From an uncultured Dehalococcoidia bacterium (GTDB taxonomy: Bacteria; Chloroflexota; Dehalococcoidia; Lucifugimonadales; UBA2985): a DNA stretch of 25,931 nt. Positions 4,269-11,386 of this stretch are shown here, piece by piece. Location: positions 575 through 26,505 of the forward strand of contig CAYVMY010000007.1 in assembly GCA_964452695.1 (NCBI GenBank), read 5' to 3'. Each line of letters starts with the position of its first letter. Position 1 is the first letter of the stretch. The notes beneath the pieces were generated by a model that was not told the DNA's origin, did no database searches, and worked only from the letters and a program-made list of their open reading frames with translations. A program made the translations under genes and the position numbers.

Positions 4269-4763
4269 ATGCCTCGCGTAAAAAAACCTACAAGAATGAA
4301 AGCCGAATCGAAAACAATCTCAGTGAATCGTCGGGCACGAAGAGATTACGAAATCCTTGAAACCCTAGAGGCCGGGTTAGTGTTAACTGGTACTGAGATC
4401 AAATCGCTAAGGCTAGGAAGAGTGAATATCCAACAATCTTTCGCAAGAGCGTCCGACACGAGCCTTTGGCTATATCAAACCCATATAGCAGAGTACAATC
4501 AAGGCAATATTTATAATCACGAGCCAACCAGACCTAGAAAACTCTTGCTCCACAAAAAACAGATGCGGCAGTTAATGGATTCCATATCTCAAAAGGGGCT
4601 GACCATTGTTCCTCTCAAGATATACATCAAGGGCCATTATGCAAAAGTTGAACTTGGATTGGCTAAAGGGCGTAGACTTTACGACAAAAGACAGGTGATT
4701 GTAGATAGAGATAAGGCTCGTGAAGCAGACAGAGACATGAGTAGAATTGCTCACGGGCGCTGA
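4269..4763 (+). CDS. smpB: SsrA-binding protein SmpB
   Basis: NRRARRDY, EAGLVLTGTEIKSLR, RPRKLLLHK, KGRRLYDKR; adjacent to tmRNA. Confidence 0.97.
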   Translation: MPRVKKPTRMKAESKTISVNRRARRDYEILETLEAGLVLTGTEIKSLRLGRVNIQQSFARASDTSLWLYQTHIAEYNQGNIYNHEPTRPRKLLLHKKQMRQLMDSISQKGLTIVPLKIYIKGHYAKVELGLAKGRRLYDKRQVIVDRDKAREADRDMSRIAHGR

Positions 4764-4777
4764 CAAAGAAATCTGTG

Positions 4778-4786
4778 TGATATAAT
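4778..4786 (+). promoter_or_regulatory. Extended -10 promoter of ssrA
   Basis: TGATATAAT ends 10 nt before the mature tmRNA 5' end. Confidence 0.55.
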
Positions 4787-4796
4787 TCGATCACTA

Positions 4797-5151
4797 GGGG
4801 ACGCGCGGATTCGACAGGGGGTGCCTCTTCCAGATTGCAGGCCGAGGTTCCGTCACCCTCGTAAATCAGACGGGAAACTGTAACTGGCGATAACAAACTC
4901 GCCGCTGCTGCCTAAATAAGGTAGCGCCGTCCATCCTAGCCTACCCTCGAGGGTGTGGCATGGGCGTCATAAAATCGAGGTGCGATATCCAGATGCAGAT
5001 ACGGATCATCTAAGTAAATATCTGTTGGCCTCAGAGAAACCCTAGCCGCGTGAGGTTCTCTGAGGTGAGAATTTTCACTCGGACAAGCCTGTAGTACATC
5101 TCCGGAGAGATCTCTTTGGACGGGGGGTTCGACTCCCCCCCGTCTCCACCA
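4797..5151 (+). ncRNA. ssrA: tmRNA; tag peptide (A)GDNKLAAAA at 4886-4915
   Basis: 5' GGGGACG...GGATTCGAC; 3' GGTTCGACTCCC T-arm; CGTCTCC-A-CCA pairs with GGGGACG; TAACT precedes resume codon GGC; follows smpB. Confidence 0.97.
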
Positions 5152-5215: not shown

Positions 5216-5244
5216 TTGACAATACAAGAAAGCGGAGATACAAT
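5216..5244 (+). promoter_or_regulatory. Sigma70-type promoter of the hydrolase-pan operon
   Basis: TTGACA (5216-5221), 17-nt spacer, TACAAT (5239-5244). Confidence 0.8.
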
Positions 5245-5250
5245 TCGGGC

Positions 5251-5393
5251 GCCACTGACTTGGTTGAAGCAGTGAGTTAAGTTATCGCTAAAAGCGAGGG
5301 GGCCGCGGGGATCTTGAGACCACGACGGCAGTTAGAATCTCGTAAGCGTCAAGAAAAGCCTTACCATAGGCGTGGTGGGGCTTTATTTTTTTT
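5251..5393 (+). ncRNA. Structured 5' leader / attenuator, resembling the pan RNA motif
   Basis: Hairpins at 5253-5274 (bulged A), 5285-5297 and 5302-5329 (several unpaired As), then an intrinsic terminator, all upstream of pantothenate genes. Confidence 0.6.
5355..5393 (+). terminator. Intrinsic terminator within the leader
   Basis: AAAGCCTTACCAT-aggc-GTGGTGGGGCTTT (13 bp including G-U pairs), followed by A and T8. Confidence 0.85.
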
Positions 5394-5404
5394 ATGTGGA
5401 TTCC

Positions 5405-6391
5405 ATGTTTAGCTCCATAACTGATGTAGCTGGCATAGAGGTTGGTCACTACACTAACCAGTCAGCGGCGACGGGTTGTACTGTTCTACTCGCTCCTAAT
5501 GGAGCAGTGGCCGGCGTAGACGTACGCGGCTCAGCGCCAGGGACTAGGGAAACTGACCTTCTCCGTACTGGCAATCTGGTAGAAAAGATTCATGCTATCG
5601 GCCTCAGTGGCGGTAGTGCATTTGGGCTCGATACCGCATCCGGAATAGTAAGATATCTCGAAGAGAAAGGTATTGGATTTCCAATAGGATCAGGTGTAGT
5701 GCCTATCGTTCCTGCTGCTATTATATTTGACCTCGGACTAGGTGGAGGATCATTCAGACCTGGGGCTGAAGAAGGCTACCAAGCATGTTTGAATGCATCG
5801 GATAGCATGGTAGAACAAGGCAGTGTTGGCGCTGGAACTGGAGCAACAGTTGGCAAAATATTGGGACGAGAGCAATCCACAAAAGGAGGTCTGGGATCGT
5901 ATAGTCTCAAAGTAGGGAGCGTAACTATCGGGGCCCTAGCTGTAGTGAATGCCTTCGGAGACGTAATAGACCCCAAAGACGGGAAAACGATAGCTGGCCC
6001 AAGAAAAAAACCAGCACCTCCATTATTTGAAAATACAGTGGACCTACTTATAAACCCAGATAACACCAGTCAGGTCCCAGAGTTATCCCCAACAAATACG
6101 ACCCTAGCTGTGGTAGCGTGCGACGCAACATTAACAAAGGAACAAGCTAACAAACTCGCGCAAGTAGGTCAGGATGGCCTTGCTCTGGCCGTAAGGCCTA
6201 GCCACACAATGGTTGATGGTGACATAGTATTTGCCTTGGCCACCGGGAATAATCAGGAACCCCCAAACATGAGGAGCCTATGTGCAGCAGCCTCCGTTGT
6301 CGTATCTAAAGCCATAATAAATGGAGTGTTAGCTGCAACAGCAATCAATGGCATACCGTCTGTGAAAGATCTTGGCATTTTGCAATCTTGA
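5405..6391 (+). CDS. P1/S58 (DmpA/ThnT-like) self-processing hydrolase
   Basis: ITDVAGIEVGH, GVDVRGSAPGTRETD, GGSAFGL, GAGTGA, N-TT autoprocessing site (TNTTLAVVA), HTMVDGDIVF. Start moved to ATG 5405 because the GTG at 5372 lies inside the terminator. Confidence 0.88.
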   Translation: MFSSITDVAGIEVGHYTNQSAATGCTVLLAPNGAVAGVDVRGSAPGTRETDLLRTGNLVEKIHAIGLSGGSAFGLDTASGIVRYLEEKGIGFPIGSGVVPIVPAAIIFDLGLGGGSFRPGAEEGYQACLNASDSMVEQGSVGAGTGATVGKILGREQSTKGGLGSYSLKVGSVTIGALAVVNAFGDVIDPKDGKTIAGPRKKPAPPLFENTVDLLINPDNTSQVPELSPTNTTLAVVACDATLTKEQANKLAQVGQDGLALAVRPSHTMVDGDIVFALATGNNQEPPNMRSLCAAASVVVSKAIINGVLAATAINGIPSVKDLGILQS

Positions 6392-6449
6392 TTGAGGCAG
6401 TATGGGCAATAGTTATGCTTACATTGTATAAATATTGAGTGGGAATAGT

Positions 6450-7364
6450 ATGGCAACAAAGAAAAAAATATCAGTGGGGTTCATAGGATCTGGTCGGATA
6501 GCCAAAGCTTTAGCCTTGGCTTTAGCCCCAAAAGGATATTCTGTGCCCATTGTAGCAAGTCGCAGCTCAGATTCCGCAAAACATCTTGCAGGCCTTATTC
6601 AAGGCTGTAAACCAACTGATAGATTCCAGGATGTAGCTGATATCTGCGACATAGTATTCATCACAACTCCAGACGACCATATAGCAGAGGTAGAAAGTCA
6701 AATAAATTGGAGGATTGGAGTTATAGTAGCCCACTGTTCTGGTGCTGAAACTTCACATATACTCAGTCATGCTAAAACTAACGGAGCCAATGTTGCAAGT
6801 TTCCATCCAATGCAAACGTTCTCAGGATACCCTGACGAGCACGAAAAACTTAGCAATGTGGCCTTTGCATTAGATGGGGATAAACAAGCAACTGATACGC
6901 TCGCGGAATTAGCCTACGCCCTTGGAGGTTGGCCAGTTTTCATAAATCCAGAACTAAGGTCACTTTATCATATCTCTGGATTCCTAGCTTGCGGAGCCAT
7001 ATCCACTCTATTGTCCAAGTCAATAGACTTATGGAAACTAATGGGTTATTCCACACAAGACGGACTAAGAGTCCTTCTTCCTATACTGCACAATACTGTA
7101 GGTAATATCGAGCACTATGGACCTGCCAAATCTCTGACTGGACCGGTGTCTAGAGGAGACATAACTACAGTAAGCAAACACATTGAAGCACTGAGTAACA
7201 ACGCTCCTGATCTGCTTGGACTTTACCGACAGCTATCCATTAATGCTGCCAGCCTTTCAAAACAACTAGGAGGTATAGATGATAAACAGGAATCAGCTCT
7301 GCTCGAAGTACTAGGTACAATATACTATGCAGAAGAATCATCGTCCGAAAAGTCTATCAAATAA
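6450..7364 (+). CDS. panG: Rossmann-like + DUF2520 oxidoreductase, probable PanG-type ketopantoate reductase
   Basis: GFIGSGRIA, HCSGA, SFHPMQTF, LTGPVSRGD; directly upstream of panB. Start at ATG 6450. Confidence 0.8.
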   Translation: MATKKKISVGFIGSGRIAKALALALAPKGYSVPIVASRSSDSAKHLAGLIQGCKPTDRFQDVADICDIVFITTPDDHIAEVESQINWRIGVIVAHCSGAETSHILSHAKTNGANVASFHPMQTFSGYPDEHEKLSNVAFALDGDKQATDTLAELAYALGGWPVFINPELRSLYHISGFLACGAISTLLSKSIDLWKLMGYSTQDGLRVLLPILHNTVGNIEHYGPAKSLTGPVSRGDITTVSKHIEALSNNAPDLLGLYRQLSINAASLSKQLGGIDDKQESALLEVLGTIYYAEESSSEKSIK

Positions 7365-7391
7365 ATATTTTCAGCCACAGGGAGGTTTGAT

Positions 7392-8231
7392 ATGCGCCTG
7401 ACAATAAGCGACATCCAAGACCTGAAAACTAAAGGAGAGAAAATCCCTACTATAACAGCCTATGACTATACATCGGCAAGAATAGTTGACTCAGCTGGAA
7501 TACCATTGGTGCTGGTAGGAGACACTCTGGGGCAAGTAGTATTAGGATACGACTCTACAATACCAGTTACTATGGAAGACATGATTCATCACGTAAAAGC
7601 AGTAGTGAGAGGTTCGTCTCGAGCTCATATAGTAGGAGATATGCCATTCATGTCCTACCAAACCAGTTCATATGACGCACTTCGTAATGCTGGAAAATTT
7701 CTACAAGAAGGCGGCGTACAATCTGTCAAACTAGAGGGGGGAGTAGCCATAGCATCTACGGTTCAAAGATTGGTATCTAATGGCATCCCTGTTATGGGAC
7801 ACATCGGGCTCACACCCCAATCTGTTAACCAGATGAGCGGATACAAAGTTCAAGGTAAAACTGTCAAATCAGCGGCTAAATTAATGGAGGACGCAAGGGC
7901 ACTAGAGGAGTCAGGGGCATTTTCCATAGTACTTGAATGTGTTCCCGCCTCTCTTTCGAAATTGATAACAGAGAGATTATCTATTCCAACTATTGGCATA
8001 GGTGCTGGGCCAGACTGCGATGGACAAATTCAAGTATTCCATGACATCTTGGGATTATTCACGGATTTTGTGCCCAAACACACCAAGAGATATGCCGATC
8101 TGAACCACACAATAGGAAATGCAATAATCTCCTATATGGACGAGGTGCGACTACAACAATTCCCAGGGAAAGAGCACGGATATGCCATGAAGGAGAATGT
8201 CTTGGCGGAGCTTCAAGCTCACGTCGATTAA
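7392..8231 (+). CDS. panB: 3-methyl-2-oxobutanoate hydroxymethyltransferase
   Basis: TAYDY, LVGDTLG, DMPFMSY, VKLEGG, GHIGLTPQ, IGIGAG, DGQIQVFHD; GGAGG SD. Confidence 0.97.
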   Translation: MRLTISDIQDLKTKGEKIPTITAYDYTSARIVDSAGIPLVLVGDTLGQVVLGYDSTIPVTMEDMIHHVKAVVRGSSRAHIVGDMPFMSYQTSSYDALRNAGKFLQEGGVQSVKLEGGVAIASTVQRLVSNGIPVMGHIGLTPQSVNQMSGYKVQGKTVKSAAKLMEDARALEESGAFSIVLECVPASLSKLITERLSIPTIGIGAGPDCDGQIQVFHDILGLFTDFVPKHTKRYADLNHTIGNAIISYMDEVRLQQFPGKEHGYAMKENVLAELQAHVD

Positions 8232-8235
8232 GGGT

Positions 8236-9087
8236 ATGAGAACCATATTTTCTGTTCAGGAGATGGTCGACATACGCGATAAACTCGAACGTCCTATGGC
8301 TTTAATCCCTACAATGGGGGCTCTTCATGCTGGTCATGTCTCTTTAGTTGACAAAGCTAAACAGGAAAATGCTAGCGTAGTAGTTAGTATCTTTGTCAAT
8401 CCAGCTCAATTTGGACCCAGAGAAGACTTTCAATCTTATCCGCGCCAACTAGAATCTGACTTGGACCTCTTAGAGTCTCTTGATGTGAATGTAGTATTTG
8501 CACCTGGCCAACAAGACATGTACCCAAACGGGTTCGATACTTGGGTCGAATCCGGAGATATATCGCACAGACTCGAAGGGGAGCAGAGGCCTGGGCATTT
8601 CAGGGGAGTTTCAACAGTAGTAACTAAGCTATTCACCATAACCAGGCCAGATACGGCATACTTTGGTCAAAAGGATGCTCAACAAACCATAGTGATTGGA
8701 AAGCTCAACAGGGATCTCAACTTAGGGGTAAACGTCAAGGTGTTGCCTACAGTACGGGAGTCAGACGGGTTAGCCATGAGCACTCGCAACTCTTATTTGA
8801 AACCAAACGAACGTCAAGCATCAAGAGTATTATTTCAATCTCTAACATTGGCATATGATATGCACTCAAATGGACAGCAAAACGCTAATGACATTAAATA
8901 TGAGATGCGGAAACTTATAGGGAAAGAATCGTTGGCAATAATCAATTATATTAGCGTCGCAGACCTAGATACCTTAGAAGAGATTAAACAAACAAACGAA
9001 GGTGCATTAATCTCCATAGCCGTAAAAATCGGAAAGACCAGGTTAATAGACAACATAACTCTTAGATCCAACTCTAAACATATGTAA
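8236..9087 (+). CDS. panC: Pantoate--beta-alanine ligase
   Basis: PTMGALHAGH, SIFVNPAQF, RPGHFRGV, FGQKDAQQ, RESDGLAMSTRN, RLIDN. Start at ATG 8236. Confidence 0.97.
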   Translation: MRTIFSVQEMVDIRDKLERPMALIPTMGALHAGHVSLVDKAKQENASVVVSIFVNPAQFGPREDFQSYPRQLESDLDLLESLDVNVVFAPGQQDMYPNGFDTWVESGDISHRLEGEQRPGHFRGVSTVVTKLFTITRPDTAYFGQKDAQQTIVIGKLNRDLNLGVNVKVLPTVRESDGLAMSTRNSYLKPNERQASRVLFQSLTLAYDMHSNGQQNANDIKYEMRKLIGKESLAIINYISVADLDTLEEIKQTNEGALISIAVKIGKTRLIDNITLRSNSKHM

Positions 9088-10094: not shown

Positions 10095-10880
10095 TCAATC
10101 TACCTGGATAGTTACCTCGCCACCTGAAAATGCTGTTACTGTGCCGTTGTCCATCTTAACTACCAGACTGCCCGATTCATTAACTCCTAAAGCATGTCCC
10201 TCAAATTTTTCAGACAAAGCCAGTACAGTTACACGTTTGCCAATCGTATCTATCAAATCCTCCCATTCACTCACAATCGATATGCCATTCTTGATTCTTT
10301 CGTAAGATGTTTCCATTTGCTCAATTAGCACGCGCATTGTCTCCAGACGTGATACATCGTGTCCAATTTCATTTCTTATACTAGTGGCGATATCGACAAT
10401 TGAGTCGTGACTTGTTGGATCAAAGTTTACATTAATGCCAATGCCTATCAAACAAAATTCTACACTATCCCCATCAATTTCATTTTCTATCAGTATTCCT
10501 GCCACTTTTTTCCCACCGATTCTTACATCGTTAGGCCACTTAACGGTCGGATTGAGTGGAAATCCAGAAATACGTTTTATTGCATGCACGATTGATGTAG
10601 CTGCCATCATACTCAACTGAGGAAGCCATACAATGTTTGGCCTGAGAATCACAGTTAAATACAGGTTAAGGCCAGGTGGGGATATCCATTGCCTATTAAA
10701 TCTTCCTCTTCCAAACGATTGCTCTTCGGCTATTACCAACGTCCCCTCCTCACAGCCCTCTACAGCTAGCTTCCTTGCCTGATCCATAGTAGACGAGGTT
10801 CTTTCCATATATAAAACACGATTACCAAATGAAATATTCTTCAATGACTCCCTAATTACCACTTCATTCAGATCGCTCAT
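10095..10880 (-). CDS. birA: Biotin--[acetyl-CoA-carboxylase] ligase without an N-terminal HTH
   Basis: TSSTMD, GRGR, KWPND, KVAGIL, GIGIN. Start at ATG 10880 (10901 is an alternative). Confidence 0.93.
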   Translation of the reverse strand: MSDLNEVVIRESLKNISFGNRVLYMERTSSTMDQARKLAVEGCEEGTLVIAEEQSFGRGRFNRQWISPPGLNLYLTVILRPNIVWLPQLSMMAATSIVHAIKRISGFPLNPTVKWPNDVRIGGKKVAGILIENEIDGDSVEFCLIGIGINVNFDPTSHDSIVDIATSIRNEIGHDVSRLETMRVLIEQMETSYERIKNGISIVSEWEDLIDTIGKRVTVLALSEKFEGHALGVNESGSLVVKMDNGTVTAFSGGEVTIQVD

Positions 10881-10983
10881 AGTATCAACACCCATATACA
10901 TCTCTCATGATTTTATTCCGGACTGTCGGCATCATTAACTGAGTCTTTTTGACATCAAAGCAATAAGGGTAAATGGCAGGTTA

Positions 10984-11386
10984 ATAGGTAAGCCTGTAAG
11001 CCGAGTTCTGTGCTACCACAAATAAGTTTTATCTTACTTTATAGTAGTGGTGATCATCTATCTGGGACTCCAATTTCTTGAAGCCTCGTGCAGCCAACCC
11101 GAGGGCGAGCCAGGCTCTCTTTGCCCTCCTATTCGGCCTTGCTCCAGGTGGGGTTTAGCCGCTGCCACGTCGCCGCGTCAGCCGGGAGCTCTTACCTCCC
11201 GATTTCAACCTTACCTGCCATCCTCATAACAAACTTGTTTAAAAATGTTCCGAGAATTTGCAGGCGGTATGTTTCTGTGCCACTTTCCTTCGAGTTACCC
11301 CGACTGGCCGTTAGCCAGCACCCTGCCCAGTGGAGCTCGGACTTTCCTCCCCTGCAGATGCAGGAGCGATCACCCGGCCTACCTAT
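10984..11386 (-). ncRNA. rnpB: RNase P RNA, type A
   Basis: GAGGAAAGTCCGAGCTCC, AGTGGCACAGAAA, GGTAAGAG, TAAACCCC..GGAGCAAG, ACAGAACTCGGCTTA; P1 ATAGGTAGGCC/GGCTTACCTAT. Confidence 0.97.

Follow-up and report, generated by a model that had tools for sequence, protein, structure and literature searches.

The pan RNA motif (Rfam RF01749) was described by Weinberg et al. (2010, Genome Biol 11:R31, PMC2864571) as two tandem hairpins, with two highly conserved bulged adenines per stem, located in the 5' UTR of operons with panB, panC or panD. Tandem hairpins are the usual form outside the delta-proteobacteria, in which pan RNAs are typically single hairpins (PMC2864571). A dimeric protein was favoured by the discoverers as the binder, and their in-line probing, carried out on a pan RNA from Geobacter, showed no modulation by 1 mM pantothenate, CoA or beta-alanine, a result reported together with a caution on construct problems (PMC2864571). 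A search of the literature for riboswitches that sense CoA, pantothenate or pantetheine, and for work on the function of the pan motif, returned only the 2010 description, mentions in transcriptome studies and reviews stating that none is known.

PyrR attenuation of the pyr operon operates through a protein-stabilised anti-antiterminator hairpin. In antitermination of the BglG/LicT type, the RAT site overlaps the 5' arm of the terminator. The mini-ykkC RNAs are small tandem hairpins that were first taken for protein sites and were later found to bind guanidine. In Bacillus subtilis, a pan RNA precedes panB.

The DNA under study, henceforth referred to as the window, is a stretch of 25,931 nt from an uncultured marine Dehalococcoidia bacterium (Chloroflexota; Dehalococcoidia; Lucifugimonadales; UBA2985) and corresponds to positions 575-26,505 of the forward strand of contig CAYVMY010000007.1 in assembly GCA_964452695.1. 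Positions 5216-5404 of the window very probably constitute the promoter and leader of an S58/PanG-like/panB/panC operon, containing a divergent pan RNA whose factor-bound hairpins would set the read-through of a terminator. An earlier note made from the letters of the window had proposed a terminator-containing structured 5' leader of a pantothenate operon here, and this part of its reading is supported by the present analysis. The features of the locus are as follows.

4797-5151, + strand: tmRNA gene (Rfam, 163 bits)
5216-5244, + strand: sigma-70-type promoter; -35 TTGACA at 5216-5221, 17 nt, -10 TACAAT at 5239-5244; 11 of 12 consensus matches
5251-5277, + strand: pan hairpin 1 (H1); 2-bp base, bulged A5275, 5-bp middle stem, bulged A5258, 3-bp top, 5-nt loop
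5285-5297, + strand: small linker hairpin read from the sequence; 5 bp and a 3-nt loop, specific to the window and a few related genera
5297-5301, + strand: box of purines adjoining H2 on its 5' side; family consensus RGGRG
5302-5329, + strand: pan hairpin 2 (H2); 4-bp base, bulged A5325, 5-bp middle stem, bulged A5311, 2-bp top, 4-nt loop
5355-5393, + strand: intrinsic terminator; 13-bp stem at 5355-5384, then eight T at 5386-5393; hairpin -17.4 kcal/mol
5405-6391, + strand: peptidase family S58 (DmpA-like), first gene of the operon (Pfam PF03576, E 7.7e-51)
6435-7364, + strand: Rossmann-like and DUF2520 protein (Pfam PF10728 and PF10727)
7392-8231, + strand: panB, ketopantoate hydroxymethyltransferase (Pfam PF02548, E 3.8e-115)
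8197-9087, + strand: panC, pantoate-beta-alanine ligase (Pfam PF02569, E 4.4e-99)
10981-11385, - strand: bacterial RNase P RNA, class A (Rfam, 293.6 bits)

The gene order on the + strand is tail-specific protease, smpB, tmRNA, the intergenic stretch, S58, the Rossmann/DUF2520 protein, PanB and PanC. Homologues of the S58 protein begin aligning at the ATG at 5405, and the Rossmann-like protein at 6435-7364 belongs to what we take to be the family of PanG-type ketopantoate reductase.

Transcription from the promoter is predicted to start at about 5250-5252, within 1-2 nt of H1. The near-consensus TTGACA-17-TACAAT promoter of the earlier note is indeed present, and it is the only + strand promoter-like site found between 4700 and 5875; the separate internal promoter for the S58 gene that the note had entertained as an alternative was thus not encountered ahead of the gene. 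A -10-like hexamer lies upstream of the motif in 44 of the 48 related leaders having enough upstream sequence, and in 34 of these 44, drawn from many families, it ends exactly 6 nt before the first paired base of H1. A -35 element, spaced 16-19 nt from the -10, was present in 39 leaders. The fixed distance between promoter and hairpin suggests that the promoter and the RNA motif are passed on together as a unit, and the spacing from the -10 points to H1 as the structure at the very 5' end of the mRNA across the class.

Both hairpins contain two bulged adenines, one per strand and five base pairs apart, and the middle stem of H2 carries a central G-A mismatch (G5308/A5322). They are joined by a linker of 24 nt that is variable among relatives. 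All three hairpins read from the sequence earlier were recovered: the bulged-A hairpin is H1, the GCCG hairpin with unpaired adenines is H2, and the small TCGCT/AGCGA hairpin does exist in the window at 5285-5297. The last of these, situated in the variable linker, is not conserved in relatives (alignments A1 and A2). The 146-nt leader folds modestly better than shuffled sequences (z -2.2), so the support for leader structure comes from conservation and not from folding energy.

Homology of the leader to known RNAs was assessed in two ways. The curated model RF01749, an Rfam search being one of the checks named in the earlier note, gave no match to the leader at E values up to 10, whether 321 nt or 89 nt were searched, and no match in the window's own genome. 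The leader went unmatched in all 29 genomes of the family, which yielded a single weak match (18.5 bits) on another contig, and the gathering threshold of the model (36.2 bits) was not reached by the leader of the window. Other Rfam matches to the leader at gathering or permissive thresholds (rnk leader, viral pseudoknots, MEG8) were at chance level only and were discarded. The same curated model found matches in 53 of 151 other genomes of the class. RF01749 matches were compared with a covariance model (R1) constructed from the 27 family leaders only, which tests homology without relying on resemblance. R1 recovered each of the 12 RF01749 matches fetched from other families, over the full length and with the coordinates unchanged (E values of 1e-7 to 2e-4), as well as 36 of 40 further ones, so that 48 of 52 matches from other Dehalococcoidia families were recovered at the same coordinates. 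Additionally, R1 matched 24 leaders in other families of the window's order, and the bulged adenines of H1 and H2 align with the bulged positions of the RF01749 matches.

The leader thus has the bulged adenines, the tandem hairpins, the position in the 5' UTR of a pan operon and homology by an independent profile, at a score below the Rfam threshold. The pan architecture and the recovery of RF01749 matches by R1 identify it as a divergent pan RNA, and the link to the pan motif that had been suspected beforehand is correct. Judged from its sequence, the leader is a diverged copy of the catalogued pan RNA motif joined to a transcription terminator, and so a real, conserved element of a known kind. 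It shares with RF01749 the tandem hairpins with two bulged adenines each, the panB/panC 5' UTR and the occurrence in Chloroflexota (Dehalococcoidia). It differs from the Dehalococcoides type in the middle stem of H2, which reads CGGGG/CCACG in the window's family and CUUGG/CCGAG in the Dehalococcoides type, and in a shorter H2 top (2 bp, 4-nt loop). The central H2 pair is an invariant G-A mismatch in the family, whereas others have U-G or G-G, and a conserved purine box precedes H2 in the family, unlike in RF01749. What is new here is a family-wide variant invisible to the curated model, together with an apparent loss of antiterminator pairing described below; the motif itself has been known since 2010. 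The pan motif is therefore wider in Dehalococcoidia than the Rfam model reports, the whole family and several further families of the order having been missed, and since the curated model misses the variant, annotation pipelines will leave such leaders unlabelled.

Conservation was examined from the family to the class. A BLAST search of the leader against 60 relatives returned a 34-nt core that corresponds to the window's H2. This core occurs in 26 of 28 same-family genomes, from nine genera, with 88-97% identity, and was not found by plain DNA similarity (BLAST) in other families of the order. The divergent leader is carried by 27 family genomes, among them that of the window, out of 29 searched, and a single copy of the motif per genome was found in the family. 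In each of the 27 family loci, S58, the PanG-like gene and PanB follow the core on its own strand, except that one genus has no S58. The earlier note had allowed for hairpins not conserved before pan genes; they are instead kept upstream in 27/27 loci. Outside the family, the motif is on the same strand and upstream of S58, PanG-like, panB or panC genes in all readable loci but one.

The covariation alignment of orthologous leaders proposed in the same note came out in favour of the structure. In the alignment of the 27 family leaders (A1), compensatory changes occur at 7 of the 10 H1 pairs, while H2 is invariant except for its loop and hence without covariation in the family. All four bulged adenines (A5258, A5275, A5311 and A5325) are invariant in these leaders. 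In a class-wide alignment of 49 sequences, compensatory changes are seen at 10 of 10 H1 pairs and at four H2 pairs, 14 pairs in total, and one pair of the H2 middle stem covaries across the class (U-A/G-C, 25:22). The central pair of H2 is non-canonical (G-A, G-G or U-G) in most class sequences. The covariation score of the two-hairpin structure was 0.366, compared to 0.149 for shuffles and 0.04-0.09 for slid controls, in an alignment that was fitted to the model and so somewhat favours the structure. U-G wobble pairs are frequent in the H1 stem (20 of 49 sequences at one pair), which argues for an RNA element rather than a DNA operator, and a reading of H1 as an operator palindrome was rejected for this reason. 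A leader peptide starting in the H2 loop was also rejected, as the would-be start codon becomes non-start triplets in relatives.

The strong terminator placed by the earlier note 11 nt before the first ATG was found as described, with the T run ending at that distance from the ATG at 5405, and its stem begins 25 nt after H2 (H2 end at 5329, stem start at 5355). Terminator-like hairpins are present in 62 of 85 related leaders, 7-37 nt after H2. In leaders without one, the distance from the motif to the first gene is often just a few nucleotides, an arrangement that would fit translational control, as the conserved purine tail in the Rfam consensus suggests for Firmicutes. In the window's own family, a U-rich terminator is absent from six or seven leaders, so the read-out of the motif is not uniform. 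A sister-genus subgroup (L017 and L019, also L012, L018, L024 and L025) has no U-rich terminator 30-110 nt after H2 and has two C/U-rich boxes and a small hairpin in its place. In L017 and L019 there are also 8 nt able to pair with the H2 5' strand without a mismatch, with five U after them. In this subgroup the motif seems to be read out in a different way.

The 5' arms of the terminators carry a sequence signal of their own. CC[U/C]UC occurs in 61% of the terminator 5' arms of related leaders, compared to 2.5% of 40 control terminators from the window's genome. CCGAG-type leaders have an arm that could pair with the H2 3' strand along ten positions, a single one of them mismatched, and the duplex of H2 3' strand and arm has a mean energy of -11.6 kcal/mol in 42 leaders against -7.8 kcal/mol for control arms (Mann-Whitney p 3e-6, a value overstated by the relatedness of the genomes). 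When CCGAG-type arms were paired with the non-cognate H2 type, the mean fell to -7.8 kcal/mol. The conserved arm and the cognate duplex energies are the signature of an antiterminator formed from the H2 3' strand in sister lineages.

This complementarity is largely lost in the window's family, unlike in the CCGAG type. With the CCACG-type H2 of the family, the alternative pairing shrinks to about 3 + 2 bp, and the duplex mean is -6.0 kcal/mol against -6.9 kcal/mol for controls (p 0.77, among related genomes). RNAalifold applied to 19 nascent family leaders predicted only H2 and no antiterminator, and constrained folding of the window leader gave -47.4 kcal/mol for the terminated fold and -34.7 kcal/mol for the best terminator-free fold, a difference of 12.7 kcal/mol. 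The remark in the earlier note that a convincing antiterminator could not be picked out is borne out for the family by constrained folding, by RNAalifold and by duplex energies relative to control terminators. Other pairings were considered and set aside. The purine box can pair over 4-6 bp with the top of the terminator 5' arm in most genera; the resulting box-to-arm helix enclosing H2 is attractive by eye and appears in some nascent folds, but its energies are no better than those of control arms (percentiles 0.07-0.95) and it was not recovered by RNAalifold. A strong duplex between the H2 5' strand and the arm occurs in one genus only (L002-L004, -17 kcal/mol), and this pairing was dropped as a general antiterminator.

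In the mechanism that we propose, the mRNA would begin with H1, followed by the variable linker, the near-invariant H2 and the terminator, which is predicted to stop most transcripts 11 nt before the first start codon. Some factor, most likely a dimeric protein and less likely a CoA-pathway metabolite, would bind both hairpins and set the number of polymerases that pass the terminator. In the sister lineages, a free H2 would open and its 3' strand would hold the 5' arm of the terminator, forming an antiterminator and leaving the operon on; with H2 stabilised by the factor, the arm would be free to form the terminator and the operon would be off. The complementarity of the arm to the H2 3' strand in these lineages is what suggests an off-switch upon stabilisation of H2. 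For the window's family the switching step is assumed by homology only, and the mechanism may differ, for example by protein-dependent antitermination.

A similar logic is that of PyrR-type pyr attenuation. There, as would be the case in the sister lineages, the competing elements are a binding hairpin, the terminator, and an antiterminator in which the hairpin 3' strand pairs with the terminator 5' arm, and the outcome is end-product repression of a biosynthetic operon. The pan hairpins differ in having no sequence similarity to the PyrR binding loop, and in the window's family an antiterminator is not evident. The comparison of leaders adds two usable facts on an orphan motif, namely that H1 lies at the 5' end of the transcript with fixed spacing and that, in most lineages, the arm is constrained to pair with the H2 3' strand. 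The latter constraint predicts end-product repression through stabilisation of H2.

Three other explanations of the leader were weighed. The hairpins might form a riboswitch aptamer to which a small molecule of the pantothenate/CoA pathway binds directly, perhaps cooperatively, favouring termination. H2 is conserved near base for base across the class, including the non-canonical mid-stem pair, which is more than a plain helix needs, and it is this near-invariance that keeps the small-molecule reading alive. The strict association of the motif with pantothenate synthesis genes fits as well; reviews from 2022 still list CoA among the compounds without a riboswitch and call the gap a blind spot, and mini-ykkC provides a precedent for tandem hairpins that turned out to bind a ligand. 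Set against these points are the absence of modulation of the Geobacter pan RNA by pantothenate, CoA or beta-alanine at 1 mM and the form of the hairpins, which are small (about 28 nt), alike and in tandem, and which the discoverers read as a dimeric protein site. Some of the ligands that the earlier note suggested testing had thus been tried once before, with a negative outcome. The probed RNA came from the delta-proteobacteria, a group with typically single hairpins, whereas the leader in the window is tandem. On balance, direct binding of a metabolite is considered rather unlikely. The narrower proposal, an aptamer for a CoA-pathway intermediate outside the three compounds tested in 2010, is improbable in our estimation; candidate ligands include 4'-phosphopantetheine, pantetheine, pantoate and dephospho-CoA, and both hairpins together might be needed. 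If true, a metabolite-binding pan RNA would fill the long-noted gap of a CoA- or pantothenate-sensing RNA.

The leader could instead serve as the site of a positive antiterminator protein, with a near-constitutive terminator being read through without any alternative RNA pairing. Such a protein would account for a family with a very stable terminator and no supported RNA antiterminator, and for a purine box that is conserved beside H2 with no clear pairing partner. The pan hairpins resemble RAT sites of the BglG/LicT type in being short, in their bulged or asymmetric adenines, in the proposed binding of a protein dimer and in their position before an intrinsic terminator. They do not, however, share the defining overlap, as H2 ends at 5329 and the terminator stem starts 25 nt later, at 5355. 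Moreover, the complementarity of H2 3' strand and arm in the sister lineages points to the opposite logic, in which binding leads to termination. No candidate gene for a partner protein was linked to the motif among the window operon and the 27 family loci, no PRD-type regulator gene lies within the window's operon, and the context is vitamin synthesis and not sugar use. We therefore regard a positive antiterminator as a doubtful explanation. Much less probable still is a free-standing small RNA gene extending from promoter to terminator, with the operon driven independently. Its own strong promoter and strong terminator would yield a stable RNA of about 142 nt. Against it stand the gap of just 11 nt that separates T run and start codon, the lack of a second promoter-like site, the single copy per genome found in the family, and a location immediately ahead of pantothenate genes that many families retain; in terminator-less relatives, the motif directly adjoins the first start codon. 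A pan leader that controls read-through into the operon thus remains our preferred reading.

Several observations were made on the surrounding genes. The operon at 5405-9087 has no panD. Aspartate decarboxylase (PF02261) is encoded elsewhere on the chromosome in four complete same-family genomes, and in one of them (G006) the gene lies about 200 kb from the pan leader, with no second R1 match found there. The window's own genome, only 62% complete, yielded no PF02261 match, and the lack of the gene in the window is therefore a poor guide to the genome. Most of the Dehalococcoidia leaders examined have an S58 (DmpA-like) gene as the first one behind the pan motif. By this first-gene position, as read from the sequences, the S58 peptidase family is tied to pantothenate synthesis. 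Directly upstream of the pan leader are smpB and the tmRNA gene (4269-5151), the end of the latter being separated by 65 nt from the -35 of the pan promoter. Downstream, a biotin-protein ligase gene (10095-10901, - strand) adjoins the RNase P RNA gene.
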